A stretch of DNA of 56,778 nt from a virus. Taxonomy: Duplodnaviria > Caudoviricetes. A program made the translations under genes and the position numbers. Of the stretch, positions 6,750 to 56,149 are shown piece after piece. The stretch's first letter is position 1. Every line of letters begins with the position of its first letter. The notes beneath the pieces are model-generated. The model saw only the letters and a list, made by a program, of their open reading frames with translations. It was not told where the DNA came from and did no database searches. The stretch spans positions 1 through 56,778 of IMG/VR virus record IMGVR_UViG_3300028840_002119; one strand, given 5' to 3'.

Positions 6750-6765
6750 TATTTCCTGGGAAATA
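6750..6765. promoter_or_regulatory. Noc/parS-like palindrome 1 (TATTTCCTGGGAAATA)
   Basis: One of 7 exact copies; intergenic. Confidence 0.75.
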
Positions 6766-6791
6766 CCTGGCGCGCGCGGGATCTGCCCCGT

Positions 6792-7271
6792 TTAGCTGTC
6801 ATCTCGTAGATAGACCTCGATTGTACCATCCGCCATCATAACGTAGACGCCTGGGTCCGAAAACGGGCAGTGCATACTCTCGACCTCTGCATCATTGCGG
6901 ACGACCATCAGAGGGACAAGGTGCGGATCGTACCTTTGGTAAGGCGTAGGCAAAGACTCCAGCCAGTCGACGACGTTGGGCATTTTGACCACCCACATCA
7001 TTGTGGGGGCCGGTCCGAACTCCGCGATCTTCGCCTTCGCTGCTTTGATGGCCGCGAGGATGTCATCGCCATCGGTGGCCACGTCAGTCGTTCCAGTAGA
7101 CGGCCGTACCGTCATTACATCCTCAAAAGTCTCAAGCTGAAACCCGATGTCAATCTTCGGCCAGTGCCAAGTCATGCACTTATGCACCTCACAGAAGCGA
7201 TACTGACACCATTCCGGCCTGAGTACCACAAACTTCGACGGCTCGCACCATTCACACGTCCACTTAATCAC
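6792..7271 (-). CDS. Hypothetical protein with N-terminal Cys/His motifs
   Basis: CEWC...CEVH; overlaps the end of the ThiF gene. Confidence 0.6.
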   Translation of the reverse strand: MIKWTCEWCEPSKFVVLRPEWCQYRFCEVHKCMTWHWPKIDIGFQLETFEDVMTVRPSTGTTDVATDGDDILAAIKAAKAKIAEFGPAPTMMWVVKMPNVVDWLESLPTPYQRYDPHLVPLMVVRNDAEVESMHCPFSDPGVYVMMADGTIEVYLRDDS

Positions 7272-8064
7272 GATTTTCCTCCTGTTCTTCGGTCAAGATC
7301 GGCAAACTACGCGCCGAACCACTAACCAGATCGAAGTACGTTGCATAGATGTCCAAGTCCTGACTCAAAATCAGGCGATACAGGTATTGCGAAGCGAAGG
7401 TAGCCACGGCCTGGTTGACCATTAGGCTCTGGGCATCGCGTAGGGTCAACTCCGCGCAACTTTCGGCCATCTTCTCTACAGGGTCATCGACCAGCAACTC
7501 AGGATGTTGGATGGAAGGCAGTGGTAAACCCGAGCAAAAATCCAGCGTGAGTTCTGGTTTTTCGAGATCATACCGATTGCCAAGCAGCACTTGGCCAGCG
7601 TGTTCCGCGTTTCCGCAATCCAGCCACCAGAACTGATATGCTGGCGCGCGACTCGCGATGCTCCTGCGTGCGGCGGCATTGTCCACGCACCCAACGACGA
7701 TGCACAAATCCTTCCCGTTATTGCGATACATCTGCGTGTAGTTTTCAACGCCATCGACGATAGCCTTGATCTGCAAACCGAATGCGGCGTTGTATCTCCG
7801 CATCAGGGTCCACGCCTTTGCCGCACCTATCTCGACGGGTGAGAAATTCTGACGACCGATGTTCTTGTGCTCTACGATGTCAGGGTCAATAAAGGTCAGG
7901 CTTACAGGCAACTGCCGTTGCTCGTGGGCGTGATATGCGAGACGCGCCAGGTGCAGCGCGACGAATGAACCCGTACCCCCACAGCCGACCAGCACGATCT
8001 TGACCTGCTCGATCTCGCCCACCATAATCCTGCGTAGTCTCTGAGTTGTTAGCTTAATCTCCAC
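7264..8064 (-). CDS. ThiF/E1-like protein (PRTRC system)
   Basis: VLVGCGGTGS, IDPDIVEHKNIGRQNF, GCVDNAAAR, WWLDCGN, ESCAE, QSLMVNQ. Confidence 0.92.
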   Translation of the reverse strand: MEIKLTTQRLRRIMVGEIEQVKIVLVGCGGTGSFVALHLARLAYHAHEQRQLPVSLTFIDPDIVEHKNIGRQNFSPVEIGAAKAWTLMRRYNAAFGLQIKAIVDGVENYTQMYRNNGKDLCIVVGCVDNAAARRSIASRAPAYQFWWLDCGNAEHAGQVLLGNRYDLEKPELTLDFCSGLPLPSIQHPELLVDDPVEKMAESCAELTLRDAQSLMVNQAVATFASQYLYRLILSQDLDIYATYFDLVSGSARSLPILTEEQEENRD

Positions 8065-8620
8065 GAATTGCCTCCCCTGAAAGTTCGAGACGTCCGGCCT
8101 CTCCGACCATCATCGCCTTTCCTGCCTCTGCATACATCTTGACCAGTTGCAGGCTCGCCCGTTGCACCGTGGGCATCCGGTCTTGTGGCGGCGTTGCCAG
8201 CATCACCACGGCCAAACGGCCAATTTCATCCAGCGCCCGATAGACATCCTCAGCGATAGACGTAGGCAGCGTCTTAGGCTTGTCTCCATCACCCTCGACG
8301 AAGAACCAGTCGTCAAGTAGATCGTGAGACTTAACACTGAATCCATAGATGTACTTCCCGTTGCGATACCTGACGACTTCCGCGAAGACGTCGGCCAGCG
8401 TGAACATCCCTGCCCGCAACTGCTTGTACGTCCCTGCCCTCTTCGTTTTCAGGTAGCCATCGCCGTCAATCCGACACAGTGACCGGAGCACTGCTTTCAC
8501 GGCCATGCTGAACGGCCCAACCTTTTCGCCCGCGATGTCTCTGCGCGTGTCGATGTTGTCCAAGTGTATCGCGTCCACCTGGCGCCAGCCTTCCCCAAAG
8601 TATTCTTGCACACCCTTCAT
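8054..8620 (-). CDS. Hypothetical protein inserted between the JAB and E1 genes
   Basis: Overlapping start/stop codons with both neighbours. Confidence 0.7.
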   Translation of the reverse strand: MKGVQEYFGEGWRQVDAIHLDNIDTRRDIAGEKVGPFSMAVKAVLRSLCRIDGDGYLKTKRAGTYKQLRAGMFTLADVFAEVVRYRNGKYIYGFSVKSHDLLDDWFFVEGDGDKPKTLPTSIAEDVYRALDEIGRLAVVMLATPPQDRMPTVQRASLQLVKMYAEAGKAMMVGEAGRLELSGEAIRGD

Positions 8621-9222
8621 CGCCTCTTTACCTCCGCGAGTTTTGTCTTACCGAAAAACAACATTTCAAGGGGTACGGTCCAGAAGTCACCATAAACGCC
8701 TACGCGCAACTGTATCTGTGGTCGGGTGAAGATGGTGCCAATCACTCCATACAAGCGGAACCCTACCTCGTCACGATCGTCTATAGGACTGAAATTCGCC
8801 GCGCCGTCGCAGTGGCTATGGATGTCCATGATCACATCCGCGCCACCATCACCGACGCACACAGCATGGGTTTCTCCAACATTCTGACGCGGCCTTACTA
8901 TTCTCGCGTTCAACCCATCCATGCGGATATGGTAAAGCGCCTCTTTCGGAGATGCTGTCGCCACCGATCGAGCATCGTGCAAGATCGAATCGAGCAAGTA
9001 TGCCGGCAATTCCCCTTTCCTCAGTTGGACCTTTGGCCTCAAGAGCGGCAGTCCCACGATCTTACACGTCGCCAGGGGGACGATCGCCAGCAGATAGGCG
9101 TTACGAGCGACCTTGAAAACCCCGTTACCGGCCATCACGTAGTGGTAAGTATGGCCGTCGCCAAAATCCGGCTCATGTCCAGAATGGATGATGTACCCTG
9201 CCGGATTCCTTATCTTCAACAT
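8617..9222 (-). CDS. JAB/MPN metalloprotease (PRTRC protein A-like)
   Basis: YVMAGNGVF; DIHSHCDGAANFSPIDDRDE (HxH...S..D). Confidence 0.9.
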   Translation of the reverse strand: MLKIRNPAGYIIHSGHEPDFGDGHTYHYVMAGNGVFKVARNAYLLAIVPLATCKIVGLPLLRPKVQLRKGELPAYLLDSILHDARSVATASPKEALYHIRMDGLNARIVRPRQNVGETHAVCVGDGGADVIMDIHSHCDGAANFSPIDDRDEVGFRLYGVIGTIFTRPQIQLRVGVYGDFWTVPLEMLFFGKTKLAEVKRR

Positions 9223-9935
9223 ACCTCACCTACCTTCGCCTTCATCAGAAGATCGTCAACCGGATAGGCTTCAGCTCCAGACAAGGCTTGCCATTGCCGG
9301 AGCACGTTGTCAGGATGCGCTCGTGATTTACCATTTGCAAAATCCAGATTGAAGACGCTCTCGAAGAACAGCGCCAGCGCCGCGTGAATCGTCGTGCGAC
9401 TGCACAAAGGCTGGTCAGTGTTTCCCCAACAGATGCGCCCTGTCTCTGCGACGTTGGGCAAGGGCGCGTGAAACAGATCGTCACCCTCAGTCGTCGGGCG
9501 CTTTGCGACGGCCCACAGCCAATAGTCGTACCCCTTACCTGCAAACACCAAACCAGGAAGGACGATATCAAAAACATCAGGGAATCCCTCTGACTTGACA
9601 TTCATTTTGCGTCTCTGCGGGGGCACGTAGATACCGATGGACTCCTCGCCATCCTCGCGCCTGTAGAACAGGCAATCGGCGGGAAGTAGGCCGCTGGTCA
9701 ACGGCAGACCAGAGAACGCCACGGCCAGCGCTTCGGGACTGATCTCGTAAGCACTCACGGCCTCGCCGCGCTCGAACTTCGTCAGGATGATCGTTTCTTC
9801 GTACAAATCAACGCGGCCCTGGATTTTCTGATAGCTCGCGTCTGATAATGCCGCATCGCCATTCAGCGCAATCTCAAGCGCACTATAGGCATCATAAACG
9901 TTTACGTGTTCTGTGTTCGTGTTTTCGTCTGTCAT
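9216..9935 (-). CDS. Prokaryotic E2-like protein (PRTRC protein B-like)
   Basis: LPGLVF, LFHAPLPNV...GRICWGN (catalytic Cys), FFESVFN. Confidence 0.85.
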   Translation of the reverse strand: MTDENTNTEHVNVYDAYSALEIALNGDAALSDASYQKIQGRVDLYEETIILTKFERGEAVSAYEISPEALAVAFSGLPLTSGLLPADCLFYRREDGEESIGIYVPPQRRKMNVKSEGFPDVFDIVLPGLVFAGKGYDYWLWAVAKRPTTEGDDLFHAPLPNVAETGRICWGNTDQPLCSRTTIHAALALFFESVFNLDFANGKSRAHPDNVLRQWQALSGAEAYPVDDLLMKAKVGEVC

Positions 9936-10819
9936 GTCTCTGCACTCTCCAACTTCACTATGTGGTCAGCCATTGGAGCGAGATGGAAGATCGGCCCGAT
10001 CAGCTCCAAGACCTTCATTGTTGCCTGTACTGCATCCTTGCCCTTGAACCAGTCGATGTATGCCTGCAACTGGGCAAGTTTTGGTTTCGCGGCCCGATAG
10101 TCGAGCGCATACATCTCGACGGCCCAAGCGGTCCAGCCATTGCGTGTTTCCCAATCCTCGTATTCGCCATCCCACATCGCGGGAACGTTGTCGATGAAGG
10201 AATTGCCAGAGGCCCGCGTGAAGCACTGATAAGCAACTGCCATCCCATTGAAAGGGACCGGCAGCGCGTTCAACTGCTCGAAGATGCGGCTCTGGTCAGT
10301 CACTACCTTGTACTGCGTGAATCCCTTACGCGCCAGCCACCCCAGGGCATCGTTGTAGCGTTCGTCTGCGTATGCCTGCATGTGCTCGTATTCAGGCTGT
10401 AGCCCAGAGATCGCCGCTGCACCGATCGGTGCGTAGTGGTCTTCGACATGATGCACCGGACACACTTCCCACGGTATACCATAAGACTCAGGCCAGATCG
10501 GAAGCCACAATGCAAACGTCTCGCCTCCCCACACAACTTCGTCATACGCTTCGAGATCAACCGGAAAAAGCTCGTTATGAATCCGGCCTAACAGTTGCAC
10601 CTCTACGTCATACGGCCCACCTGTTGGCTTGCGACTTTCAGGGAAGATTTGACCATACAACCTGCGCGCGTTTCGATATGCGGATAGATACCCATCATCG
10701 ACCGCACCGATCATCGTACTATAGCTCAACAAGCGGTATCTATCGAGCAGCCGCTTGAAGGTGCGTAGTTTCAGAACCCTGGCGGCAGGCGGCTGGGTTT
10801 GGCTGATAATGCCAAGCAT
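9932..10819 (-). CDS. PRTRC-associated helical protein (protein F-like by position)
   Basis: Position between the Ubl and E2 genes; no clear motif. Confidence 0.6.
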   Translation of the reverse strand: MLGIISQTQPPAARVLKLRTFKRLLDRYRLLSYSTMIGAVDDGYLSAYRNARRLYGQIFPESRKPTGGPYDVEVQLLGRIHNELFPVDLEAYDEVVWGGETFALWLPIWPESYGIPWEVCPVHHVEDHYAPIGAAAISGLQPEYEHMQAYADERYNDALGWLARKGFTQYKVVTDQSRIFEQLNALPVPFNGMAVAYQCFTRASGNSFIDNVPAMWDGEYEDWETRNGWTAWAVEMYALDYRAAKPKLAQLQAYIDWFKGKDAVQATMKVLELIGPIFHLAPMADHIVKLESAET

Positions 10820-11010
10820 CGCTCTACGACCTCCCCTGATTTGATGACGTGTGTCGTCAGTTCATTGCTATGCTGTTCGAGTTGTTGTATCACGGCGGCT
10901 AGTTGTGTAGCGTCGTGCTTGAACTTGACCAGCGCCATAAGTTGACTTACAGCCTCCATGTGTAGAGGCTGTAAGTCTTCAAGACGAGCAACTATATCAG
11001 TGCTGTTCAT
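10771..11010 (-). CDS. Hypothetical protein (79 aa)
   Basis: AAGGGGAG SD; coupled to the Ubl gene. Confidence 0.5.
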   Translation of the reverse strand: MNSTDIVARLEDLQPLHMEAVSQLMALVKFKHDATQLAAVIQQLEQHSNELTTHVIKSGEVVERCLALSAKPSRLPPGF

Positions 11011-11197
11011 CGCTCCCCTTCGTAGTCGCTTTCTTAACGAAGGTCACAACATTCAAATCTCCGTCCTTCGACTTCTTCACCGTGGCCGCAGCAACTTCCG
11101 CGAAGTGTGGCGTCAACTGCCGCCGAACCTCTTCTACGGTCAACTCGTCGTTTTCGTCAACGTACTCATAATCCTGATACTTATACTTCGTCGCCAT
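10997..11197 (-). CDS. Prokaryotic ubiquitin-like protein (PRTRC protein C-like)
   Basis: Pattern D...LTVEEVR..L..HFAEVAAATV...VTFVKKATTKG, plus a 5-aa tail. Confidence 0.8.
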   Translation of the reverse strand: MATKYKYQDYEYVDENDELTVEEVRRQLTPHFAEVAAATVKKSKDGDLNVVTFVKKATTKGSDEQH

Positions 11198-12852: not shown

Positions 12853-12870
12853 AGCCCTTTCACCTCGTGT

Positions 12871-12886
12871 TATTTCCTGGGAAATA
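12871..12886. promoter_or_regulatory. Noc/parS-like palindrome 2, directly upstream of the Noc-like parB SD
   Basis: TATTTCCTGGGAAATA. Confidence 0.75.
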
Positions 12887-12956
12887 TTGAAATGCGGGAA
12901 GGTGGCAAAGCTGCCACCCTCCCCATGAAACCGACCTCGGTAGTCGGCCAACACCT

Positions 12957-14150
12957 CTATCCTCGTATCTGTGTAGACAACGCGGCCAGCGCCTTGCTCC
13001 AATCGCCGGACGCCTTTGCCGCCGTTATCTCTGTAGAGACTGGCGGGTGCTTTTCTACATCTGGCGACACCCGTCCGGCCCCCTTCAACTGCCGTACCCG
13101 CGTCCAAAATTCCGTTGGACCTGGCACCGGCTCTTGAACTTCATCGGCCTGCGGAGTGACGCCTTCCGCATCCTCTCGCGGGAAGTAGTTATCCAGATCA
13201 GAGACGTCTTCGATCACCTCGCTTTCTTCATCTGGCGGCGGGTCGATGATGTCAGGCCGCGCCAGCACATTGTCAATCCAGAGCGCGTGTAACTCTACGC
13301 CCTTCATTCCGCTTTCACGGGCAACTTCCTCGTATGCGTTGCGTGCGTGCTGAATCGCCTTGAACTTACCGCGATCAAAGCCCCACTCGATGGCCTCGGC
13401 GTCGTCATTGAACGAAGTCGGGATAGCCTCTTGAAGTGCATCGCGTTCTTCTTCGGTCAGGCCGTCATAAACGGCGTGCTCGATCTTCTCAGGCATATCC
13501 AGCCACGTACCAGAATCGTCCCACAGGATGGGCACTTCCGGAAACGTGCGCCCACGTCGCGCCCATACGACCTTGATACCGCGCACGTCATCGGCACGCT
13601 TGACGATTTGCAGCTTCAAGTTCAAGCAGCGGAGCAAGCGCACCAACTCAGTCTTACTCACCGTCGCGCGCGTTTCCTTCTCGCCCTGACCATCGCGCCC
13701 ATCGTTGAGATGGTAAATCCAGAGTACATCCGTACCCCACCGCGTAACCACATCCTGCAACTGCGCCATCGCGATAGCCTTTGGTGCAAATGCAGCGGCG
13801 AGATTCTTTTCGCGCCCAGTTTTGTGCGCCTGCATCCCTTCGACTACCAGCGGTTTGATGATGGCCGTCAGGCTGTCCGTGACGATTGTCCGCACCCCAC
13901 TCCCTGGCATATTGGCCATGAGCAGTTGGGCGATGCGATCTGTGTCAACGTGGTCGGCGGGATTGTCGCTCAATTCATAGACAAGCGCATCGGTCACATC
14001 GAGCACTTCACGGAAGCGATGATCTGCATCGATCGGCAGAATCGGACTCCGCATCCGCATCGCAAAGGTGGTTTTCCCTCCACCTGGATACCCGACTAAC
14101 CCCCACAAGCGCGGGGGATAGTCGGTCTTCACCATTTTATTGAACGGCAT
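12957..14150 (-). CDS. P-loop NTPase, Sak4/AAA_24-like recombination protein
   Basis: Walker A GYPGGGKTT; Walker B TIVTDSLT. Confidence 0.7.
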   Translation of the reverse strand: MPFNKMVKTDYPPRLWGLVGYPGGGKTTFAMRMRSPILPIDADHRFREVLDVTDALVYELSDNPADHVDTDRIAQLLMANMPGSGVRTIVTDSLTAIIKPLVVEGMQAHKTGREKNLAAAFAPKAIAMAQLQDVVTRWGTDVLWIYHLNDGRDGQGEKETRATVSKTELVRLLRCLNLKLQIVKRADDVRGIKVVWARRGRTFPEVPILWDDSGTWLDMPEKIEHAVYDGLTEEERDALQEAIPTSFNDDAEAIEWGFDRGKFKAIQHARNAYEEVARESGMKGVELHALWIDNVLARPDIIDPPPDEESEVIEDVSDLDNYFPREDAEGVTPQADEVQEPVPGPTEFWTRVRQLKGAGRVSPDVEKHPPVSTEITAAKASGDWSKALAALSTQIRG

Positions 14151-16234: not shown

Positions 16235-16263
16235 ATTATAGCATGGGTCACATTTCGTGTCAA
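16235..16263 (-). promoter_or_regulatory. Leftward promoter PL (perfect consensus)
   Basis: TTGACA-17 bp-TATAAT with TGC extension. Confidence 0.88.
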
Positions 16264-16279
16264 TAGAATGTATGTTCTA
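16264..16279. promoter_or_regulatory. LexA-like operator abutting the PL -35
   Basis: TAGAAT-GTAT-GTTCTA, one mismatch from AGAAC-N4-GTTCT. Confidence 0.55.
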
Positions 16280-16331
16280 TAAAAAGCGCGATCCAGGCAT
16301 GGCCTTTTCGAGATGACTTTTCGCGAAATGC

Positions 16332-16360
16332 TTGACAACGCTTCTGTTTTCCTGTAGAAT
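16332..16360 (+). promoter_or_regulatory. Rightward promoter PR
   Basis: TTGACA-17 bp-TAGAAT. Confidence 0.85.
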
Positions 16361-19912: not shown

Positions 19913-19928
19913 TATTTCCTGGGAAATA
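19913..19928. promoter_or_regulatory. Noc/parS-like palindrome 3
   Basis: TATTTCCTGGGAAATA between the polX stop and the next SD. Confidence 0.75.
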
Positions 19929-19946: not shown

Positions 19947-20834
19947 GTGTCAAAACACGAAGCTGCACAGCAGCTAATTGACTTTATCGAGGAAAAGCTG
20001 AGAGACTGGGTGCCGCCTGAATACTGGAAGCCAGAACCGCGCACCCCATTCCGCGATCCCATGATGTGGGCCTTATTCTCACCTGCCTTTGTCTGGATTA
20101 TTGGCGCGGCCATCTATGGCGGCGAGGCTATCAGGGCCAGGGACATCCAGGCCGCTACGGATGGGCTTGGCTCATGGATGATGGTCATCGGCGGCGAGGT
20201 CGGGACGATCTTCGTGGTTATCGAGGTGTTTCGTAAGCTGCTGAACGAGGATCACGGATGGATAGAACGCCTGTTCGACATCGGCGGCCTGGCCATCTCG
20301 ATGATTGCGACGTTGGGCGTTGTTGCTGTGCCCTTCGCCCGCCAAACGTCGATTGTCCATGAATGGGTGAATCTGGTACGGACATACGGCCCGCTGGTCC
20401 TGCTCGTCTGCTCCGTCTTCGACTTCTATGCCAACGGCATGGAAGCCGGATTCTACCTGATGACGTTCGCACAGCGTTGGGAGAAGTGGAACCAGGACAA
20501 GCGCACCTTCCAAGAGAGGGAAAGGAACAAGTATATTGCGTTACTGACGCAGCCAGTCAACTACGTCGCCGCGACACCTGACGCGCCACCCGCAGCAGAT
20601 GAAGCGCCAGTGACGCAGGATGACGCGCCACCCGCAGCAGATGAAGCGCCAGTGCAGTTGAACAAGCCGATGTTCGACAAATGGCTTGCGTCACTCAACG
20701 GACGACGCGACACGCTGACGCGGGATGAAGTCTTGCAGTGGGCAATCGGGCTAGGTGCCGACGTCAGTAGCGCGACGGGACGCGCCACCAGAGACAAGGT
20801 GATGCGTTGGTGCAGACGAGCGGAGATCAACTGA
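19947..20834 (+). CDS. Multi-TM membrane protein with duplicated DAPPAADEAPV linker
   Basis: About 4 hydrophobic helices; 33-nt direct repeat near 20580-20653. Confidence 0.75.
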   Translation: MSKHEAAQQLIDFIEEKLRDWVPPEYWKPEPRTPFRDPMMWALFSPAFVWIIGAAIYGGEAIRARDIQAATDGLGSWMMVIGGEVGTIFVVIEVFRKLLNEDHGWIERLFDIGGLAISMIATLGVVAVPFARQTSIVHEWVNLVRTYGPLVLLVCSVFDFYANGMEAGFYLMTFAQRWEKWNQDKRTFQERERNKYIALLTQPVNYVAATPDAPPAADEAPVTQDDAPPAADEAPVQLNKPMFDKWLASLNGRRDTLTRDEVLQWAIGLGADVSSATGRATRDKVMRWCRRAEIN

Positions 20835-20838: not shown

Positions 20839-21108
20839 ATGGGCTTCATCGAATTTCTCGCAAAGCTCGACTGGGTTGAACCACTGACCGTCCTGCTGCA
20901 CACCCTCGAAGGCACGCGGCAGCGCAAGATCACCATAGATCGCTTCTGCGGCTTCAGTGGTCAAGAAGTCGAAGATATGCTCAACTCATACGGCGTTACT
21001 CTGTGGGGTCGCGGCTTCACGGAGGACACGCTTACCTTTCACGTCAAAGAAGCGCAAGCAGATTGGGCTATGTACCTGCTTACGCGCAACGGAATCCAAG
21101 CTCGCTAA
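20839..21108 (+). CDS. Hypothetical protein (89 aa)
   Basis: Operon context between the membrane protein and FtsK. Confidence 0.7.
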   Translation: MGFIEFLAKLDWVEPLTVLLHTLEGTRQRKITIDRFCGFSGQEVEDMLNSYGVTLWGRGFTEDTLTFHVKEAQADWAMYLLTRNGIQAR

Positions 21109-21128
21109 GTTTCTATACGGAGGGAATA

Positions 21129-22571
21129 ATGCCACGATCAATGCGCCCATATCTCGAATATCAAGCGGATCGCGTCGAAGCGGTCCTCGCCGCGCACCGC
21201 GCACCTGGCCGCATCACTGGCGGCACTGTCGGCCCGCGCCTTATTCGTTTCTTCTTGAATCCAGCGCCACACATCCGCTATGCCGCGATAAAGCGCCTCT
21301 CGGACGATCTGGCCCTGGCGATGCAAGTACCCACGCTGACCATAGACAAAGGCAAGGAAGGGGTCATCTTGGAGTTTGCACATCCGAACCCGCAAAGCGT
21401 CAGCCTTATGAACCTGTTGGGTGAAGCAGGCCCATTGCCCTTCGCTACGGCCCTCTTGGGCCTAACCGACGATGGCGCTCCGTTGCTGTCACGATTCTCT
21501 GCGCCAGAGGTCGCACACGTCCTTGTCTCGGGCACAACCGGAAGCGGGAAGTCGGCCCTACTGCGGACGATCGCCGCGTCACTCGTGCTGTCATTTCGAC
21601 CGGATTTGACGCAGCTTGTTTGCATCGACATGAAAAACAGGACGTTCAAGCCGCTTGCCTCAGCGCCGCACCTGGTGCGTCCTGCCATCGACGATGCGGG
21701 GGAAGCTATCGAGGCTTTGCACTCATTATTCCGTATGATCGAATGGCGCGACCGAAAGGGAATCCTGCCAGCAAGTACATCGGGAGACGGGGTGCTTGGA
21801 AACTCCTGCCCGCGCACTATCGTCTTCATTGACGAGCTGGCCGATTTGGTCATGGCTGGCGGGAAGGATGCTACAGAAACGATTACCCGTATCGCCCAGC
21901 GAGGTCGCGAGGCCGGCGTACATCTGATTGCGGCGACACAGCACCCTTCCTCTGCGATCTTAGGGAGCGTGATGCGGGCCAACTTCCCATTACGCCTCGT
22001 CGGTCAGGTTGTCTCCGCTGACGATGCCCGCGTAGCCAGCGGAAGGGCAGGGACAAACGCGCACCTACTGAACGGACGCGGCGACTTCCTCGCCGTCGCT
22101 GGCGGAGATCGGCCTATCCGGTTTCAGGTCGCCTACATCGAACCCAAAGATTTGCTTTCCCATGTTAAACGCATCGAATTCGCTGGGAGCGTTTCTAACG
22201 ACCTTCCCGTGTACTCGCTGGATGACCAGGGGGGCATGGTCGAAATAGAGAGAAATGCGGCAACGGAGAGCGGCCAGGGGATCAACCTGCTCGACGTTAA
22301 GCCCGTAAAAATAGAACCTGAACCAAAGGAAGAAGCGCACACGGCCAGTGCCATCACTGCGGCGGCGAAGATGGCAAAGCATTGGCCGAGCGTCCGCGAG
22401 GCATACTTCGATGGAAAGGTGAACAAATCCAAGTTGTGCCGCAGCCTTTGGCCCAGCGCAAAGAGATACGAAGGTCGCTTCGCCACATGGCTCGACGAAG
22501 CAGTTGGTATCCTCGAAGCGGACATCAACAGTGCTACCTCTACCGCTACCGCAGCGCCAGGGGGTGATTAG
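21129..22571 (+). CDS. FtsK/SpoIIIE-family DNA translocase
   Basis: HVLVSGTTGSGKS, IVFIDELADL, AQRGREAGVHLIAATQHP, LLNGRGDFL; start at 21129 after a GGAGG SD. Confidence 0.92.
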   Translation: MPRSMRPYLEYQADRVEAVLAAHRAPGRITGGTVGPRLIRFFLNPAPHIRYAAIKRLSDDLALAMQVPTLTIDKGKEGVILEFAHPNPQSVSLMNLLGEAGPLPFATALLGLTDDGAPLLSRFSAPEVAHVLVSGTTGSGKSALLRTIAASLVLSFRPDLTQLVCIDMKNRTFKPLASAPHLVRPAIDDAGEAIEALHSLFRMIEWRDRKGILPASTSGDGVLGNSCPRTIVFIDELADLVMAGGKDATETITRIAQRGREAGVHLIAATQHPSSAILGSVMRANFPLRLVGQVVSADDARVASGRAGTNAHLLNGRGDFLAVAGGDRPIRFQVAYIEPKDLLSHVKRIEFAGSVSNDLPVYSLDDQGGMVEIERNAATESGQGINLLDVKPVKIEPEPKEEAHTASAITAAAKMAKHWPSVREAYFDGKVNKSKLCRSLWPSAKRYEGRFATWLDEAVGILEADINSATSTATAAPGGD

Positions 22572-23422: not shown

Positions 23423-23438
23423 TATTTCCCAGGAAATA
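23423..23438. promoter_or_regulatory. Noc/parS-like palindrome 4 (reverse orientation)
   Basis: TATTTCCCAGGAAATA. Confidence 0.75.
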
Positions 23439-23439: not shown

Positions 23440-23473
23440 AAAACGCGCCAGCGGGATCCACCGGCGCGTTTTT
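23440..23473. terminator. Bidirectional terminator between convergent operons
   Basis: AAAACGCGCC...GGCGCGTTTTT. Confidence 0.8.
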
Positions 23474-32104: not shown

Positions 32105-32419
32105 TTACCCTTTACCGGAGCTCGTGTCGATGGTCGGCGTTACGGTCGGCGTTGTCGATGGCGTCAACGTGGGCGTATCCGTTGGGTGCGGCGTTGGCGT
32201 TGTCGATGGCGTCACGGTTAGGGTACTGGTCGGCGTTGGGCTACTGGTCGGCGTTGGGCTACTGGTCGCGGTCGGCGTCAGTGTGAACGTGGGAGTTGGC
32301 GGCGATACTGTCACCGTGGGATCTGCATCGCCGGACCTGGTACATAGGCCGATTGCTGTCAGCATTGCCAGCAACAGAATGACAAGTATTACCCTGGAAA
32401 TAATTTTAGATCGTAGCAT
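32105..32419 (-). CDS. Exported Thr/Pro-rich protein
   Basis: Signal/lipobox-like IGLC followed by PTPT repeats. Confidence 0.65.
   Translation of the reverse strand: MLRSKIISRVILVILLLAMLTAIGLCTRSGDADPTVTVSPPTPTFTLTPTATSSPTPTSSPTPTSTLTVTPSTTPTPHPTDTPTLTPSTTPTVTPTIDTSSGKG
32387..32402. promoter_or_regulatory. Degenerate Noc/parS-like site
   Basis: TATTACCCTGGAAATA, within a CDS. Confidence 0.4.
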
Positions 32420-39560: not shown

Positions 39561-39576
39561 TATTACCCAGGAAATA
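39561..39576. promoter_or_regulatory. Noc/parS-like site (one mismatch)
   Basis: TATTACCCAGGAAATA between divergent start codons. Confidence 0.6.
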
Positions 39577-41980: not shown

Positions 41981-42442
41981 CTAAGAGTAGTAGTCGTTTT
42001 CAGTGACCAGCGGACCGTCGAAGTCCACCCGTTCAAAGTCAACATCAAATTGCGTAGAGACGATGTGACCAGTGCGGCCTCCATAATGCACCGCGATGAT
42101 CTGAGCATCCCTTGCAAGCATCACGGGGCAATTCACCAGCGCCAGGATGACGGCCTCGCGTACCTCGCGGATATTGACATACCCGTAGCGATCATACACG
42201 AACACGCCACACGAAGCCTCAAGCCCTTGCTCTCCAAAGTCCTGCACGATGATAGCCAGCACCTTTTGAGTGTCGCCCGCTTCCCTGCGAGTTTCCTGCG
42301 CCTCAGAGATCAGCGTAGCGATACTAACCGGCTCACGCGCTTCGAGTATCATCGCCGCGCCATCGACGACGAGATCAGTCACCGCCGTCGTGTTGCGCAG
42401 CTTGTCCAGCGCCCATGCGCCAAGATCGGCAAAGACCGCCAT
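41981..42442 (-). CDS. Tail terminator-like protein
   Basis: Position before the tube gene. Confidence 0.6.
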   Translation of the reverse strand: MAVFADLGAWALDKLRNTTAVTDLVVDGAAMILEAREPVSIATLISEAQETRREAGDTQKVLAIIVQDFGEQGLEASCGVFVYDRYGYVNIREVREAVILALVNCPVMLARDAQIIAVHYGGRTGHIVSTQFDVDFERVDFDGPLVTENDYYS

Positions 42443-42921
42443 TACGCCTCAGTCGTCCGCAATTTGTAAAGCGCCGCCTTGATCGTCTCCAGACGTTTCA
42501 CCCCAATACCGTCGATGGCTAGGAGATCATCGTCTGACATCGCCTCAACTTCCTCAACCGTCTCTGCCTCAGCCGCTAGAACCTGGAACGCGCTATAGGG
42601 CAAGAAGTCTTCGAGCGCCGTGATCGGCGTTGCGTCCGGAACTTCGACGGCGGCGGTCGCCTCGACGTCCGGTATTTCCTGGGAAATACTGTCGGCTTTT
42701 GGAAGTGGAAGACAGACAATCGCGTAGCGGTTGAAAGGACGTCGCTGCACACACTTGACCGTTCCGATAAGTTCGCCATCTTCGAGGATGTTAGCCCCTA
42801 TCGGTGCAGCCGGTGGACGCGGCATCCTGATAGTCACGAAGGCGTCTAGCTCCACGGAATGAGGCTGAAAACGCATCTGTACGTGACCGTTCTGAACTAT
42901 AGCAATTTCGCCCATATTCAC
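42442..42921 (-). CDS. Protein with C-terminal helix-hairpin-helix
   Basis: SDDDLLAIDGIGVKRLETI; contains exact palindrome copy at 42673-42688. Confidence 0.7.
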   Translation of the reverse strand: MNMGEIAIVQNGHVQMRFQPHSVELDAFVTIRMPRPPAAPIGANILEDGELIGTVKCVQRRPFNRYAIVCLPLPKADSISQEIPDVEATAAVEVPDATPITALEDFLPYSAFQVLAAEAETVEEVEAMSDDDLLAIDGIGVKRLETIKAALYKLRTTEA

Positions 42922-49334: not shown

Positions 49335-49350
49335 TATTTCCTGGGAAATA
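49335..49350. promoter_or_regulatory. Noc/parS-like palindrome between the terL stop and the portal SD
   Basis: TATTTCCTGGGAAATA. Confidence 0.75.
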
Positions 49351-51569: not shown

Positions 51570-51965
51570 CTATAACAATGGGTCTTTTTCGTCTTTTGCC
51601 ACCTGCTTGAAGCGATCATCCGGCCCTGGAAGATCGTCAGGCAGATGCAGCCCAAGCAGTTCAGTCTCCTGCTTGAGCGCCCGTAGAATGTTGTCTGTGT
51701 CACCCTGTGCCCATGCCTGACGACGCGCGGCCCGCAACTCCGCCAGGACGCGCCCCCGTTGGGCGTCTTTGTCGAAAACTTGCGCCCACTCAGCTTCGAG
51801 CGCGGCGATGTCGGCCTCGATGACATCCAGCGGGTAGGGTTCGCCTGTGGACGGGTTTAACATCGTCCGCGAGAATTGCAGCGTAATCTCCGCTGCTTCC
51901 ATACCACGTAAGTATAAGGACCCCACTCGCTGCCGCCGCACTAGGTCTTGAATGGATTCACTCAT
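51570..51965 (-). CDS. Second TerS-like protein
   Basis: RRQRVGSLYLRG...QETELLGL, similar layout to its neighbour. Confidence 0.6.
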   Translation of the reverse strand: MSESIQDLVRRQRVGSLYLRGMEAAEITLQFSRTMLNPSTGEPYPLDVIEADIAALEAEWAQVFDKDAQRGRVLAELRAARRQAWAQGDTDNILRALKQETELLGLHLPDDLPGPDDRFKQVAKDEKDPLL

Positions 51966-52620
51966 CGTCAGGCTCGCGTATCAAGTCAAGTGCTCGCGGA
52001 ATGTTGGCGTGCGGAATATCGAGGAAGGTACACAACAGTTCGAGGGTGCGATGCGGATGCTTGAGCAGGTCAGGGTACGTGATGCCCAAATGTGGAGGAC
52101 ACACTTCGGCAAGGAACTCGTCAACGACAGTGCTATACCGCAGACACAAGTCCCACCATTCGCCCCGCGTGATGTCCGTGTTGCGTTGCTTCACAACTTC
52201 ACGGTGCATCAAGGAAGATATGATGTCACCCCTGGGCCTGCGGACTATGATGTAGGTCGGCTCATGCCCCATTGCGGAGAAGACGGCGTGATACTGCCGG
52301 ACAACCAGGCAAGTCCGTGGGTCTTTGAAGCCCCAATGCGAAAAGCCTGCACGTTTCTGGCAGGCTATTTCGATGGTTTCAATATGGGCCGCGAGTGAGG
52401 TCAGCAGGCGCGGCATAGACGGCGGCCTATACCACGTATGGCCTTCGATCTGCATCAGCGCCTTGTTCACCCGCTTGAAGTCTTCATCCTCGAAATAGCC
52501 TGTCGGATTGAAGGCATCTGGCGGACGCGACTCACCCATATACACGCCCAAACGCGAGAGCAGCCCTGCCGTCAGGCTGGTGCCGCTTCTGTGCATCCCT
52601 AGAATTATGATAGGACTCAT
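51958..52620 (-). CDS. Sulfotransferase-family protein
   Basis: PIIILGMHRSGTS (PAPS-binding loop), NPTGYFED, WGFKDPR, RRP..IISS; ATGA-coupled start. Confidence 0.85.
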   Translation of the reverse strand: MSPIIILGMHRSGTSLTAGLLSRLGVYMGESRPPDAFNPTGYFEDEDFKRVNKALMQIEGHTWYRPPSMPRLLTSLAAHIETIEIACQKRAGFSHWGFKDPRTCLVVRQYHAVFSAMGHEPTYIIVRRPRGDIISSLMHREVVKQRNTDITRGEWWDLCLRYSTVVDEFLAEVCPPHLGITYPDLLKHPHRTLELLCTFLDIPHANIPRALDLIREPDDE

Positions 52621-53363
52621 AGCTTTATGTTTTGCCTCCGTACTACGCTGCGGATCAGCAGCCTCAAAACTTCCTTGCCCTGGGAGTATTTCAGCCAGTG
52701 CCCCCATTTGCGCTTGAGGTATTCAAGCTCCTGGCGATTACGCTCCCCTGTACGCATGTGCGAGTTTCCCCCTGCGTTGTTGAATCTGGCGTGGACGAAG
52801 GCGAAGCGATTGTCCATGAAGATGACGCGATGCTTCAGTAGTACCTGGAGACAAAAGTCAATATCAGCACGCAGCAGCAGGGTAGTATCATAGCGATACT
52901 CGCGCCCAATAATCCCCATCACGCCACCTACCCACGTAGGAAGCACGAAGGGGTCAAATGGCCTAAACTTGCGGACGTCGCCACCGTTCTGCGAGAAGCC
53001 AAAGATAGGCGTACCCAATCCACGCGCGCAAATCTCAGCGTTTTGGAGTATCTGCATCACGGACTCAGTATCGCGCAACATTGCTGAGTGTGATGTCCGT
53101 CCGGCCAGCAGCCTGACTTCGTGAACATCGTCGGCGGCGATCACAACAACTTCATCCTCGAAGTTATCGAGTATCCACTGCTTGAGCGGTCCAATACCGG
53201 CGACACTGGAAGGGTGCGTGACGATCGGTGCGCCTACCTTCTCACACATTGGCGCGTAGTCGTCTTGTTCGGCCTCGTCGATGCACACCGTGGCGCTAGG
53301 GAAGATGCGAAGCGCGTGCCGGCATGACTTTACGCGCTTACGACTTGGGATTACGATTTGCAT
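52617..53363 (-). CDS. GREB1/TAGT-like glycosyltransferase
   Basis: IVIPSRKR, QWILDN, AADDV, ADIDFCLQVL, NAGGNS...LKRKWG. Confidence 0.72.
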   Translation of the reverse strand: MQIVIPSRKRVKSCRHALRIFPSATVCIDEAEQDDYAPMCEKVGAPIVTHPSSVAGIGPLKQWILDNFEDEVVVIAADDVHEVRLLAGRTSHSAMLRDTESVMQILQNAEICARGLGTPIFGFSQNGGDVRKFRPFDPFVLPTWVGGVMGIIGREYRYDTTLLLRADIDFCLQVLLKHRVIFMDNRFAFVHARFNNAGGNSHMRTGERNRQELEYLKRKWGHWLKYSQGKEVLRLLIRSVVRRQNIKL

Positions 53364-54069
53364 TTAGCAGCTCCATCAACTTCGCGCCATCCAGCGCCCG
53401 ACACAAGCCGATCTTCCTGCGGAGCTTCCCCTTACCGCCAGTAATCGAAAACCCTTGTTTTTCCAGTCCAAGCGCGTCGATGACCATCGCCCAATCCCAC
53501 GTATTGCGGAAGAAGAAGACAACATAATCCCAGTGCTCGAATGGCTGTATCGCCATCTCTGGCACTGGGTCAAACGTGAGATCGTCAGCGGGCAAATCTG
53601 CACCATCGTCTTCGAGGTCTTCCATAAGTTGACGGCCAGCAAGCTGCTCTAGCTCGCGATCATAGAAGAAGGCGCTAATATCGACACCTTCATCAACTTG
53701 CGCGATTATCTCGTTGGCGTCATAGGCTAGGTTCAGTTCTGCAACACGATTGTCCGCAATCGCCAACCCCCGCGCCTGCCCGCCATCCGCCTCATGGTCA
53801 AGGTCTTCACGCTGCACGATGACAAGTTCATCCCCTGACGTCTTGACGACACGGATCGGAATCCCCAACTCCTTCTCCGTCCGTATCGTCTTCTCACCGG
53901 CGATGATCTTGCCAGCTCTGTCAATAAGCGCCGAGCGGCCAGGACCAAACCGCACCATACTCTCACGCAGCGCAAACCCACCGCGTTCTGTGCCTTTGTT
54001 TGTGTTGCGTTCATCTTCTGTGATGTCGTCAATCGTTTCGATGTCCACAACTTCAGCGTTTTCTGTCAC
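53338..54069 (-). CDS. ParB-like (nuclease-type) domain protein
   Basis: SMVRFG.GRS..IDR.GKIIAG, LAIADNR.AEL; GTG start with GGAGG SD. Confidence 0.78.
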   Translation of the reverse strand: MTENAEVVDIETIDDITEDERNTNKGTERGGFALRESMVRFGPGRSALIDRAGKIIAGEKTIRTEKELGIPIRVVKTSGDELVIVQREDLDHEADGGQARGLAIADNRVAELNLAYDANEIIAQVDEGVDISAFFYDRELEQLAGRQLMEDLEDDGADLPADDLTFDPVPEMAIQPFEHWDYVVFFFRNTWDWAMVIDALGLEKQGFSITGGKGKLRRKIGLCRALDGAKLMELLNANRNPKS

Positions 54070-54089
54070 CCTTCCACCTCCGCATTATG

Positions 54090-54119
54090 AAAAAACGCTG
54101 AGGGTTTTAGCCTCAGCGT
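54090..54119 (-). terminator. Leader terminator ahead of the modification/packaging operon
   Basis: ACGCTGAGG-ctaaaac-CCTCAGCGT followed by TTTTT. Confidence 0.8.
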
Positions 54120-54141
54120 CTTGTAGCACTAGGCTACACTT

Positions 54142-54170
54142 ATGGTATCAGGTACGGAGATGCCTGTCAA
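54142..54170 (-). promoter_or_regulatory. Late promoter
   Basis: TTGACA-17 bp-TACCAT. Confidence 0.7.
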
Positions 54171-54175
54171 CCTTT

Positions 54176-54964
54176 TTAGTACACCTCTACCTGCACCTCA
54201 GCCCTGAAAAGTTCTTCGGCCAGTTTGTGGCCATTGCCCTTGAGTGCCTGATTGAAGTCCGCGATCCACCGGACTTCGTACTCGTCAAGATCGGGCAGGC
54301 GATGCTTGCTAGGCTGTTGCCACCGCGCCAGCTTACAGTCTTCCAGTCTCAGCGGCTCTTCATCGAAGCACTTCTTGTAGGCGTCAAGGCCGAAACAGTG
54401 CGCAAATGCCCGTTTGTACTCCTCGTATCCGGCCCGACTCAGCGGACCTTCAAGGGAAGTCTCCATCATCGCCATGCACGTCTCCCAGTTCGTGAGCGTC
54501 AGTGCGGGCTTCTTCCAGTCGTGCCCCAACTCGCGATAGGCGTCCTCGAAGTCCGCATCGCCGCCGCCATCCATCTGTAGAGCGTCAAGTCTGTCACGAT
54601 GCCGATTGCTGATCTTCATCAACCTTAGCAAGCGTTCGAGTATGATGTCCACCTTACGCCCTGCAGGACTATGATGGAGATCGCGACTGAACGGCCCGAA
54701 GATACGCACCGGCTGAGTAAGCGCCGCAACCATCGCGTCTACCCAATGTTCTGTGTACCATTGCTCCCAGCGCCCGCGAGGGTGCTCAACGTTGAAATTC
54801 GCGGACTTCGTTTCGGATTCGCTGACGTCGCCATCGTGACCAAGCGCGAAGAGACTATACTGCGCCTTCGGCGGCTTCGCCTTGCGTTCGCTTCGTACCT
54901 GCGGCTGTTCTTCCTCCGCTTCCTCAAATGTGGCACCAAGATCGAAAAGGCTATCCTGTCCCAT
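54176..54964 (-). CDS. Hypothetical protein
   Basis: Start MGQDSLFD at 54964 with GAGGT SD. Confidence 0.65.
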   Translation of the reverse strand: MGQDSLFDLGATFEEAEEEQPQVRSERKAKPPKAQYSLFALGHDGDVSESETKSANFNVEHPRGRWEQWYTEHWVDAMVAALTQPVRIFGPFSRDLHHSPAGRKVDIILERLLRLMKISNRHRDRLDALQMDGGGDADFEDAYRELGHDWKKPALTLTNWETCMAMMETSLEGPLSRAGYEEYKRAFAHCFGLDAYKKCFDEEPLRLEDCKLARWQQPSKHRLPDLDEYEVRWIADFNQALKGNGHKLAEELFRAEVQVEVY

Positions 54965-55520
54965 CGCGCACCTCTGCCATCTGGAACGCCTGAGCAAATA
55001 GAGATGGAACGGCGTCCGGCTCGGGACGTCCAGCACCGGCTATCTCCGCGACCTCGCGTGTCAACCGGAATGCTCGCCGCAGCCCAGGATGATCGACCTC
55101 GACGGCCTCAACCATTTCTTTCCACAACTCGTGCTTGCGATCGCGTTCAGCAGCTTTACCGATCATCGTCTCGAAATACCCTATGACGTGGGCCGTCGTC
55201 CTGCACTTGCATAGCACATCATAGTCAATCGTTAGAGTAAATCCACCGCGTGGCGCGCGCGTGATCGTGGACTGGCAGAACCCTAGCCGTATCCACACTT
55301 CTTCCTCTGCATCGCCCAGATCTGCATCGTCGATGCCCTTCATCGCCGCGACCATCCGGAACATCCGTGAGGATTCCGTCATGTCGCGCAACTCGACGGC
55401 GATCAGGTGTTGATTGCGATATCCCATCACGCAACCCAACGACGTGCCGCCGTACTTCTTTGAAATTTCGTTGCACGCTTCGAGAAGTTCGAGACGTGTC
55501 AACATTAGCCCGTTTTTCAT
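54951..55520 (-). CDS. Hypothetical protein
   Basis: Start MKNGLML at 55520 with GGAGGT SD. Confidence 0.65.
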   Translation of the reverse strand: MKNGLMLTRLELLEACNEISKKYGGTSLGCVMGYRNQHLIAVELRDMTESSRMFRMVAAMKGIDDADLGDAEEEVWIRLGFCQSTITRAPRGGFTLTIDYDVLCKCRTTAHVIGYFETMIGKAAERDRKHELWKEMVEAVEVDHPGLRRAFRLTREVAEIAGAGRPEPDAVPSLFAQAFQMAEVRDGTG

Positions 55521-55553
55521 CTCTGTATGACCTCCAAGAATGGACGGCGGCAA

Positions 55554-56117
55554 TCAGCCGCCGTCCTTGAACACCTTTGCTATCCCCTTCGCTATGGCCG
55601 GCGTGACGCTGTAGATATGCGCCAGTCGAATATATGGAGCATCGCGTCCTGCGCACACCTCGAAGGTCGCCTGAGAGCAGCCTACCTTGTAGCGATCTTG
55701 TTCCTGCCGGACCTCTGTTCCAAGAATCGCCGCTAGCTCGTCTGCGAAGTCTGCGGCCTGCTGTTGGCGCAGCGCCGCGATGTACTGCTGCTCGACGACC
55801 TTCAGATACCGCTCTACGTATTGACCGATGAAGCGCCGTTCGATGTCCTTCGCCACAGACTGTGCATCGCGATCGCGACTGACCGTGATGGATGGACGAT
55901 TCTCAACGATCATCTTTGGCGGGAACTCGCCGGAGATTTGCATCCGGTCTTTTTTGTTCCAGACGATGCCAAAGTGAATCCCTGCACCATCAAGCTCTGG
56001 GGTTATCAACTGCACCCGCTTCTCACGTTCTGCATAGCTCGCGCTATCGAACTCCCAACCATCCAAATACTGCGCCACCTCTATCGCGAAGGCGGCCGTC
56101 TCTGTTGCCTGACTCAT
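55554..56117 (-). CDS. Hypothetical protein
   Basis: Start MSQATET at 56117 with CGGAGGT SD. Confidence 0.7.
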   Translation of the reverse strand: MSQATETAAFAIEVAQYLDGWEFDSASYAEREKRVQLITPELDGAGIHFGIVWNKKDRMQISGEFPPKMIVENRPSITVSRDRDAQSVAKDIERRFIGQYVERYLKVVEQQYIAALRQQQAADFADELAAILGTEVRQEQDRYKVGCSQATFEVCAGRDAPYIRLAHIYSVTPAIAKGIAKVFKDGG

Positions 56118-56133
56118 AGCCCGTTTACCTCCG

Positions 56134-56149
56134 TATTTCCTGGGAAATA
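56134..56149. promoter_or_regulatory. Noc/parS-like palindrome beside a 13-bp hairpin
   Basis: TATTTCCTGGGAAATA adjoining the SD; hairpin GATAGTGGGACGT-cag-ACGTCCCACTATC at 56153-56181. Confidence 0.75.

Follow-up and report, generated by a model that had tools for sequence, protein, structure and literature searches.

Palindromes resembling the Noc-binding site are probable loading sites of a ParB-family protein encoded by an uncultured siphovirus-like phage

Introduction

ParB-type CTP switches are known from chromosomes and plasmids, where they are found in partition, Noc and KorB systems. Here we describe what appears to be such a switch in an uncultured phage family, where it apparently serves the whole genome. 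Our analysis concerns IMG/VR virus record IMGVR_UViG_3300028840_002119 (Duplodnaviria; Caudoviricetes), positions 1 to 56,778, which we call the window at its full length of 56,778 nucleotides, and in it a dispersed 16-bp palindrome and a ParB-family protein, P0001, encoded by the same DNA. We consider it likely that the nine palindromes of the window are specific binding and loading sites of P0001, which would act from them as a genome-wide clamp.

Several described systems are close to this one. Plasmid RK2 has 12 OB sites, and its KorB acts at a distance by sliding. Noc nucleates at 16-bp Noc-binding sites (NBS) scattered round the chromosome, spreads as a CTP-dependent clamp and requires an N-terminal amphipathic membrane-targeting helix (PMC8429893), and noc is described as confined to Firmicutes. 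According to Jalal et al. 2020 (PMC7383237), Noc has Q, K, K and R at the specificity positions where ParB has R, T, A and G; Q173 reads adenine 1 and R201 reads cytosine 6 of the NBS, and this pair needs K or R at position 179 or 184. The 22-bp NBS duplex in their Noc crystal contains TATTTCCCGGGAAATA as its 16 central bases.

The gene of P0001 heads a locus that resembles the ParB-Related, ThiF-Related Cassette (PRTRC; TIGR03734-03738). We found no published function for PRTRC in titles and abstract openings of the papers listed, where the term is used as an annotation label, and no literature linking ParB with JAB, ThiF and E2-like proteins in phages. The main text of the 2025 survey of the ParB-CTPase fold (PMC12704722) does not contain the words ubiquitin, JAB or ThiF, and its datasets may already include the P0001 family or domain fusions of it.

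Results

Nine palindromic sites in a complete phage genome

The window, 56,778 bp long and bounded by direct terminal repeats of 144 bp, is a complete virus record of siphovirus-like type, so the count of sites is complete for the genome. An initial annotation, made from the letters alone, had reported seven exact copies of a palindrome and variants at 32387 and 39561, and we could confirm all of them. The exact 16-mer, TATTTCCTGGGAAATA, reads on the plus strand at 6750, 12871, 19913, 42673, 49335 and 56134 and on the minus strand at 23423, against no copy in each of 100 dinucleotide-preserving shuffles. When up to two mismatches were allowed, nine distinct places were found (shuffle mean 0.02), the near copies being TATTTCCTGGGTAATA at 39561 (one mismatch) and TATTTCCAGGGTAATA at 32387 (two mismatches). 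Compared with the NBS crystal duplex, only the central C differs, being T here. The nine sites are listed below with their counterparts in G018, a related genome.

6750..6765, exact: apex of a 15-pair terminator-like hairpin (6741-6774, minus strand) at the 3' end of the ParB-ThiF cassette
12871..12886, exact: 18 nt upstream of the ATG of parB (P0001), after a GC-rich hairpin
19913..19928, exact: 18 nt upstream of gene 19947-20834 (plus strand); counterpart at 3110 in G018
23423..23438, exact, minus reading: directly after a terminator-like hairpin (23440-23472), where two converging gene blocks join
32387..32402, two-mismatch variant: within open reading frame (ORF) 32105-32419 (minus strand)
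39561..39576, one-mismatch variant: 17 nt upstream of the tape-measure ATG (39543); counterpart at 48156 in G018
42673..42688, exact: intragenic, in the variable linker of ORF 42442-42915 (minus strand), encoding SISQEI
49335..49350, exact: fills the 30-nt gap between large terminase and portal genes, 13 nt before the portal ATG; counterpart at 38204 in G018
56134..56149, exact: after a hairpin (56153-56181), 16 nt before gene 55554-56117 (minus strand); counterpart at 32562 in G018

P0001 carries Noc-type specificity residues

11365..12852, minus strand: P0001, ParB-family protein of 495 aa (profile, alignment and fold searches)

P0001 scored 71.4 bits against PF17762 (cut-off 22.6; E-value 7.6e-20) and 73.5 bits against the TIGR00180 ParB domain model, passing its cut-off of 58.45. 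By sequence and predicted fold its relatives are Noc, then closely Spo0J/ParB and more distantly KorB: the best solved relatives by sequence were Noc structures (7ol9, 6e-17), and the fold search returned 7ol9_B (1.5e-12) and the NBS-bound Noc DNA-binding domain 6y93_B (TM 0.82).

The helix-turn-helix (HTH) string quoted in the initial annotation proved correct. In the ParB/Noc code, positions 173, 179, 184 and 201 correspond to Q161, L167, R172 and R189 of P0001, Q161 and R189 facing Noc Q173 and R201, and the permissive K/R is present as R172 (position 184). The one-base difference from the NBS and the contrast of Q/K/K/R with R/T/A/G, both stated in that annotation, agree with what is set out in Jalal et al. 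2020 (PMC7383237). On the other hand, against the Noc family model TIGR04285 P0001 reached 100.7 bits and failed the cut-off of 315, while a Noc-like control, P0080, scored 315.5. P0001 is not a Noc orthologue, and the earlier description of it as Noc-like holds for the DNA specificity residues only: the protein fails the Noc cut-off, has no membrane helix and belongs to Chloroflexota-linked phages.

Site and protein vary together among relatives

A scan of IMG/VR for the exact 16-mer gave 91 stretches on 61 contigs. P0001 was searched in 49 of these contigs, the others being 11 single-copy contigs and one more, and a ParB-family match was found on nine: seven of the ten contigs with at least two exact copies, against two of the 39 with a single copy. 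The five strong P0001 homologues carry 4-12 sites each, all with central TG; their identity to P0001 is 35-50% in the best segment and 34-46% across the alignment. An alignment-based scan added G050 and G051, which have the perfect NBS or close variants in five and four copies. Among 54 family members from a large protein database, the HTH could be read by pattern in 44, of which 38 have Q at position 173, while position 201 is R in 42 and K in two.

The published code (Jalal et al. 2020) predicts that R at 173 should go with G in place of A at the second base of the site. As a reverse test, IMG/VR was scanned for TGTTTCCNNGGAAACA, giving at least 80 loci; among the 80 listed, at least four encode a ParB-like protein, and the two readable by pattern are both R...R. 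G053, a complete genome of 59.8 kb, encodes a full-length P0001 homologue (31% identity) with R at 173 and the same cassette behind it, and carries five exact copies and one near copy of TGTTTCCCGGGAAACA and no A-type site. G054 combines an R-K-D-R ParB with two TGTTTCCTGGGAAACA sites. Altogether, among the nine genomes analysed as full records, the eight with a Q-type ParB (G000, which is the window, G018, G035, G012, G005, G006, G050 and G051) have only A-type (TATTTCC) sites, and G053, the only R-type, has only G-type (TGTTTCC) sites; no parS-type site was found in any of the nine. The joint occurrence of site and Q/R residues, raised in the initial annotation, is thus seen in relatives, and its claim that the palindromes belong with the phage's own ParB is well supported. 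We regard the covariation of residue 173 with site position 2 as the strongest evidence that P0001 reads the palindromes and, together with the co-occurrence, as strong comparative support for the pairing of site and protein.

In a quick tree built from the N-terminal and HTH regions of 120 proteins, the phage family forms a clade of its own, and the Noc-like proteins stand at the base of the canonical ParB side. A single origin of the Q/R pair in Noc and in the phage family may be compatible with the tree (branch support 87, at a point where long branches meet). With tblastn, P0001 gave nothing above about 35% identity, and that in the N-terminal part only, in cultured phages, while its best matches on plasmids were annotated noc genes at ~30% identity. 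Single-protein searches for related loci with P0001, P0024 and P0052, the last two as R-type candidates, gave no matches.

Spacing of the sites

In four of the six genomes tested, the distances between sites are more even than expected by chance, as follows.

G000 (window), 9 sites: P 0.0006
G000 without the two-mismatch copy, 8 sites: P 0.057
G018, 10 exact sites: P 0.007
G053, 6 sites: P 0.0006
G050 (genome about half complete), 5 sites: P 0.002
G035, 8-9 sites: P 0.21-0.34, not significant
G051, 4 sites: P 0.11, not significant

Window sites come at intervals of ~6-7 kb. Compared with a random choice among intergenic gaps, none of 20,000 draws was as even as the window, and the corresponding value for G018 was 0.0067. 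Furthermore, seven of the nine palindromes of the window recur at the corresponding gene junction in G018, although the DNA around them is unconserved. The shared places are those upstream of parB, of the tape-measure gene and of gene 19947, those downstream of the E1 gene and of an MgsA-like gene, the gap between the terminase and portal genes, and the linker inside ORF 42442-42915.

Placement of the sites relative to genes

In a set of six genomes, 31 of 39 sites fall in intergenic DNA, against 13.8% expected, and 17 of 39 have their end 5-40 nt ahead of a start codon, against 3.8% expected, although an AT-rich motif in a genome of 56% GC would show some intergenic bias anyway. The earlier description of the window sites as mostly intergenic and often beside a Shine-Dalgarno sequence holds: those at 12871, 19913, 49335 and 56134 end 13-18 nt ahead of a start codon with such a sequence, and those at 32387 and 42673 lie in ORFs. 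The copy noted just upstream of the ParB gene is indeed there, and its position is shared with G018, G005 and G035. The intragenic site 42673 is found in the G018 orthologue in the same frame and encodes the same SISQEI peptide, with unconserved flanks. Even coverage seems to be the more general rule, and placement at gene starts a feature of the window's own clade.

The hairpin tipped by site 6750 has an RNA fold of -30 kcal/mol (z -6.2), and a sigma70-like promoter (6727-6699, minus strand) comes after it. At 56124-56159 and 12861-12896 (minus strand) the flanks lengthen the palindrome, and the RNA could then base-pair with the Shine-Dalgarno sequence of the gene that follows (-11.1 and -6.5 kcal/mol), an extension not seen at sites 49335 and 19913. 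With respect to the downstream gene, the central TG is found both ways round (13 CA, 7 TG), as expected for a symmetric dimer site, and no clear rule was seen relative to genes or strand.

Central base of the site and link to the host

Among relatives the two central bases vary (CG, TG/CA, TA, CC/GG). They are probably not read, so that T would be tolerated in place of the C of the NBS. The hexamer CCCGGG is absent from the window (about 14 expected) and CCSGG occurs three times (about 120 expected). Since a perfect palindrome would create both of these avoided sequences, the T at the centre appears to be selected, and avoidance of restriction sites probably explains the one-base difference from the NBS. 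Strong avoidance of CCCGGG extends to G018, G012 and G005, with a weaker effect in G035. G006 showed none, and neither did those parts of G050 and G051 that were sampled, the two genomes with the perfect palindrome. G006 does not fit the explanation, as it uses T without avoiding CCCGGG. We also observed that CCWGG is enriched in the window (180 against about 100 expected) and that CTAG and GGATCC are low; because the enrichment is genome-wide, the CCWGG core is not special to the sites, as a Dcm-like reading would have it. The avoidance of CCSGG and CCCGGG with the enrichment of CCWGG suggests pressure from a host restriction system with one such site.

As for the host, a contig with a ParB identical to that of G018, and itself nearly identical, falls in a Chloroflexota metagenome-assembled genome (MAG), although a phage contig binned into a MAG is weak evidence of host, and one P0001 homologue is named from an Anaerolineae MAG. 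The candidate-host MAG (4.9 Mb) has five copies of the motif on three contigs, three of them on the phage contig, and its chromosomal ParB is of the R..G type with a ParA-binding peptide, LGRGL.

Domain organisation of P0001

The N-terminal nucleotide-binding fold of P0001 has the motifs NPYQTR (12-17), GHRRLRA (84-90) and ENEKR (123-127), in which N12, P13, Q15, R17, G84, H85, R86, R87, A90, E123, N124 and R127 are invariant in all six aligned homologues; the three phosphate-binding motifs are nearly invariant in 22 of 22 homologues. Since the conserved core sets in only a few residues from the N-terminus, at the first conserved box, there is no room for a Noc membrane helix or a ParA-binding peptide; no LG(R/K)GL peptide was found in P0001.

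The C-terminal half is new. It combines a disordered linker and a small C-terminal domain with two four-cysteine clusters (C261/264/276/281 and C326/329/357/360), which we read as putative zinc ribbons. P0001 gave no match to the Pfam ParB C-terminal model. A dimer model of residues 215-495 scored 0.56 (best of three controls 0.01), with the interface at about 426-482, at least 52% of contacts shared between runs and a partner pLDDT of at least 62. The mark applied to this score was reached by 20 of 30 solved homodimers and one of 23 single-chain proteins, counts that hold only roughly here because an alignment of our own was used, and the pass may reflect a likeness to solved ParB C-terminal dimers remembered by the model. 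The C-terminal domain is thus predicted to form a symmetric dimer.

A PRTRC-like cassette follows parB

The genes behind parB begin with three small ORFs, one of which is the 66-aa ORF listed below, and a 295-aa protein; E2-like and JAB-like proteins come next, and then a 188-aa protein and a ThiF-type E1. The recognised members, all on the minus strand, are the following.

10997..11197, minus strand: 66-aa ORF, PRTRC protein C-like, putative ubiquitin-like modifier (E-value 2e-4; 21.4 bits, cut-off 45.95)
9932..10819, minus strand: 295-aa conserved protein of no known family, present in every cassette
9216..9935, minus strand: E2-like protein (Prok-E2_D, 2e-23; PRTRC protein B-like, 63.4 bits, below the cut-off of 131.45)
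8617..9222, minus strand: JAB-like protein (Pfam 21.9, cut-off 25; PRTRC protein A-like, 50.2, cut-off 101.8)
7264..8064, minus strand: E1-like adenylyltransferase, PRTRC ThiF-family (TIGR03736, 159.2 bits, above the cut-off of 144.75)

P0001 itself failed the PRTRC ParB model TIGR03734 (32.1 bits, cut-off 278.6). With ThiF above its cut-off and the A, B, C and ParB proteins below theirs, we take the locus to be a diverged, phage-borne version of PRTRC. The profile match of the 66-aa ORF stops at ...TKG and is followed by five more residues, and the ESM Atlas gave nothing usable for the 295-aa protein. The core of the cassette (295-aa protein, E2, JAB and E1 after parB) is present in eight of the nine genomes analysed as full records and on the MAG contig. 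On plasmids, 170 records matched the window ThiF; the PRTRC cassette of a Chlorohelix plasmid is interrupted by an IS21 element and no ParB was seen there, and a Planktothrix PRTRC plasmid has no annotated ParB in PLSDB's incomplete gene table.

Other ParB-like proteins and genome content

The window encodes a second ParB-like protein.

3560..4456, minus strand: P0121, 298 aa, with canonical GERRWRA and ENIQR motifs and a diverged HTH

As it lacks the Q/R pair and its HTH is diverged, P0121 is the less likely binder. Another ParB lineage, nearer to P0121, was observed in G025, G040 and G003 (loci L106, L107 and L105), with the HTH reading TSQ..I(A/S)N..RLL.LP...PPTF(A/G)R in G025 and G040 and KTQ...SSTAAR in G003. 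Their records, one of which is classed as a provirus, carry five, three and one copies of TATTTCCNNGGAAATA, the last by exact motif. Two further phage or provirus records, G055 and G056 (loci L185 and L193), encode ParB-like proteins with other specificity residues and have two to three sites of the TGTTTCC..GGAAACA type. Dispersed ParB-type palindromes may be common in phage genomes.

The phage encodes a large terminase of the gpA type, a portal of the Mu type, a tape-measure protein of 1,845 aa and tail proteins of very large size. Its genes lie mostly on the minus strand, with a block at 16.5-23.3 kb on the plus strand. When 15 kb of the window was compared with cultured phages by megablast, no DNA match was obtained, and only three of 20 early proteins matched PHROGs. 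No ParA was found in the complete window genome (no AAA_31 and no CbiA match, while all 14 control genomes matched), nor was a tyrosine integrase, and no replication-initiator or plasmid-maintenance module was recognised among the window proteins.

Two near-consensus sigma70 promoters (12/12 and 11/12 matches) stand back-to-back at 16235-16360, within the 400-bp gap that separates two early gene blocks; no ParB site lies there, and the region is likely an early control region. An FtsK/SpoIIIE-like ATPase (21003-22571, plus strand) has the FtsK alpha domain, while no gamma domain was found in it; the gene is also present in G018, G035, G012, G050, G051 and G053, including the PRTRC-less G051, and the ATPase may work together with the ParB sites. 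Directly upstream of parB lies a 397-aa AAA_24-family ATPase (12957-14150, minus strand), kept at the same place in G018, G012, G005 and the MAG contig; no counterpart was found in G035 or G006. Finally, a TET-associated glycosyltransferase-like protein (52617-53363) adjoins a sulfotransferase-family protein (51958-52707) and several proteins of no recognised family (51958-55553, minus strand). The former and some of these neighbours are conserved in G018 and G035, while the sulfotransferase-family ORF gave a sole tblastn match in G053 and none in G018 or G035. The region 51958-55553 may be a DNA base hypermodification module; no TET/JBP or methyltransferase was identified.

Discussion

In the reading that we favour, the Noc-type recognition helix of P0001 would read the half-site TATTTCC, with Q161, as the published code has it, on the A at position 2 and R189 on the C at position 7, and the C-terminal domain would hold the protein as a dimer. 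We infer that P0001 would close into a nucleotide-dependent clamp and slide off each site, as ParB, Noc and KorB do. Since the sites are evenly spread, the clamps together would extend over the entire phage chromosome and not over a single centromere. The palindrome ahead of parB would probably also provide autoregulation. The purpose would most likely be a genome-wide protein platform on phage DNA, which would either silence or time transcription in a KorB-like manner or bring the ubiquitin-like enzymes of the PRTRC cassette to the phage DNA. Of the other purposes offered by the initial annotation, division blocking is unlikely since P0001 has no membrane helix, and segregation is also disfavoured, as there is neither a ParA nor a ParA-binding peptide.

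Several observations weigh against our reading. The P0001 family has GHRR where canonical ParB has GERR, and some members of the ParB fold can bind ATP or GTP rather than CTP (PMC12704722). Neither permissive K/R is present in four of ten ParBs (L/A in G005, L/T in G012, L/E in G006 and L/N in G053), so the laboratory rule is not strictly kept. Spacing is not significantly even in G035 and G051, and four of the six sites of G053 lie within ORFs, by rough gene calls, so that placement at start codons is not general; the gene calls were made by a simple script and not by a trained gene finder. Three multi-copy contigs have no ParB match, these being at most 36% complete. E1, E2 and JAB are absent from the complete G051 despite its sites and ParB, and hence the link to PRTRC is not obligatory. 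Lastly, P0121 and the FtsK-like ATPase, both conserved, could contribute.

It is possible, if doubtful, that the sites serve in the main as operators for a global repressor of the KorB type, with even coverage as a by-product, an explanation that overlaps with ours and differs in purpose. ParB bound or halted beside gene starts and operon boundaries would then set the timing of phage-module expression. The intergenic and start-proximal placement of sites in six genomes, the site directly upstream of parB in G000, G018, G005 and G035, the sites at terminator-like hairpins and module borders, and the match of a KorB structure to the P0001 model (8qa8_C, 2.6e-6) all point in this direction. However, only one of the nine sites (6750) has a sigma70-like promoter beside it and the strongest promoters, at 16235-16360, have no site; the AT-rich motif would favour intergenic DNA in any case; the sites of G053 are very evenly spaced although most lie in ORFs; and no KorA-like partner was identified. 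Regulation could instead take place in RNA, the motif working as a hairpin in termination, processing or translational control upstream of ribosome-binding sites. The strong terminator-like hairpin at 6750 would suit this, as would the fold at 12871, equalled by 10 of 200 shuffles, and the extended hairpin at 56134, in which the Shine-Dalgarno sequence is paired and which none of 200 shuffles equalled. As a general explanation it was rejected because the motif alone folds weakly at 19913 and 49335 (-2.2 and -4.2 kcal/mol, no better than shuffles); moreover, both orientations are used, some copies lie in ORFs or on the non-coding strand, no Rfam family matched, and the covariation with the DNA-binding helix would be left unexplained. 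We therefore give an RNA role very little chance.

Partition, the classic role of the ParB family, would make the sites dispersed centromeres of an extrachromosomal prophage, like the IR sites bound by SopB in N15, which has four separate natural centromere sites (PMC7205306); the lack of a tyrosine integrase fits a plasmid prophage. This is improbable for a complete genome in which AAA_31 and CbiA are absent while all control genomes matched, in which no replication-initiator or plasmid-maintenance module was recognised, and whose P0001 lacks the N-terminal ParA-binding peptide that the candidate-host ParB has. The reader of the sites might also be another phage protein. P0121 has homologues in G018 and G035, the lineage nearer to it occurs alongside TATTTCC..GGAAATA sites in G025, G040 and G003, and the FtsK-like gene is widely shared. 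We see only a slim chance for this, since P0121 has neither the Q/R pair nor a canonical HTH, its tblastn matches in G050, G051 and G053 only overlap the P0001-like parB gene, no gamma domain was found in the FtsK-like protein, and the covariation of residue and base belongs to the P0001 family. Least probable of all is that a host ParB or Noc-like protein binds the motif and the phage borrows it, as the initial annotation had considered in naming the host parS. The near identity of the site to the Bacillus NBS would favour such a protein, but noc is confined to Firmicutes in the published account and these phages are tied to Chloroflexota, albeit by binning, which is weak evidence of host. 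Furthermore, three of the five motif copies in the MAG are on the phage contig, its chromosomal ParB is of the R..G type, and the site changes along with the phage's own ParB residue.

Returning to P0001 as a genome-wide clamp, a more specific role can be put forward tentatively, as a speculation more likely wrong than right: PRTRC would be a system of DNA-templated conjugation of a ubiquitin-like protein, in which the evenly loaded ParB clamp brings E1, E2, JAB and the ubiquitin-like protein to the element's DNA, and proteins there are tagged or untagged. Such proteins might be nucleoid or defence factors of the host, or else belong to the phage itself. If true, this would give a long-unexplained plasmid and phage cassette its first mechanism, and would also show that a DNA code of the Noc type emerged or spread on mobile elements outside Firmicutes; in any event, the clamp gene at the head of the cassette offers a concrete handle on it.

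The two-residue ParB/Noc code (Q with A, R with G), previously derived from laboratory mutagenesis, is confirmed here by natural relatives. Even spacing points to coverage of the DNA as a whole, and not to one centromere or a handful of operators. With one protein and one 16-mer, the system is small and self-contained.

Compared with named systems, the locus shares with SopB/IR1-4 of N15 the setting in a phage genome and the several separate ParB-family sites without a single array. N15, however, is a plasmid prophage with SopA (a ParA) and four sites, whereas the window has nine sites and no ParA, and SopB belongs to a different ParB subfamily (SopB structures reached E-values of 0.04-0.15 in the P0001 fold search). 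With PRTRC it has in common that one operon holds ParB, a ThiF E1, an E2 (B-like), a JAB (A-like) and a small C-like protein, although the window ParB reaches only 32 bits (cut-off 278.6) and proteins A, B and C stay below their cut-offs as well. KorB/OB on RK2 likewise combines a ParB-family clamp with several palindromes over a mobile replicon of roughly 60 kb, as here with nine in 56.8 kb. It differs in having a ParA partner, IncC, and a locking partner, KorA, neither of which was found in the window, as well as in site sequence and HTH residues, and its fold match is weaker (2.6e-6); to our knowledge, even spacing has not been described as a feature of OB sites. Unlike Noc, which belongs to Firmicutes chromosomes, P0001 is phage-encoded, Chloroflexota-linked and placed in a separate clade; with its 495 aa, two four-cysteine clusters and different C-terminal domain, it lacks the N-terminal amphipathic membrane helix and remains far below the Noc family cut-off. 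Even so, Noc/NBS of Bacillus subtilis shares with the window a 16-bp palindrome identical but for its centre, the Q and R in the same helices, and many sites scattered over one replicon.

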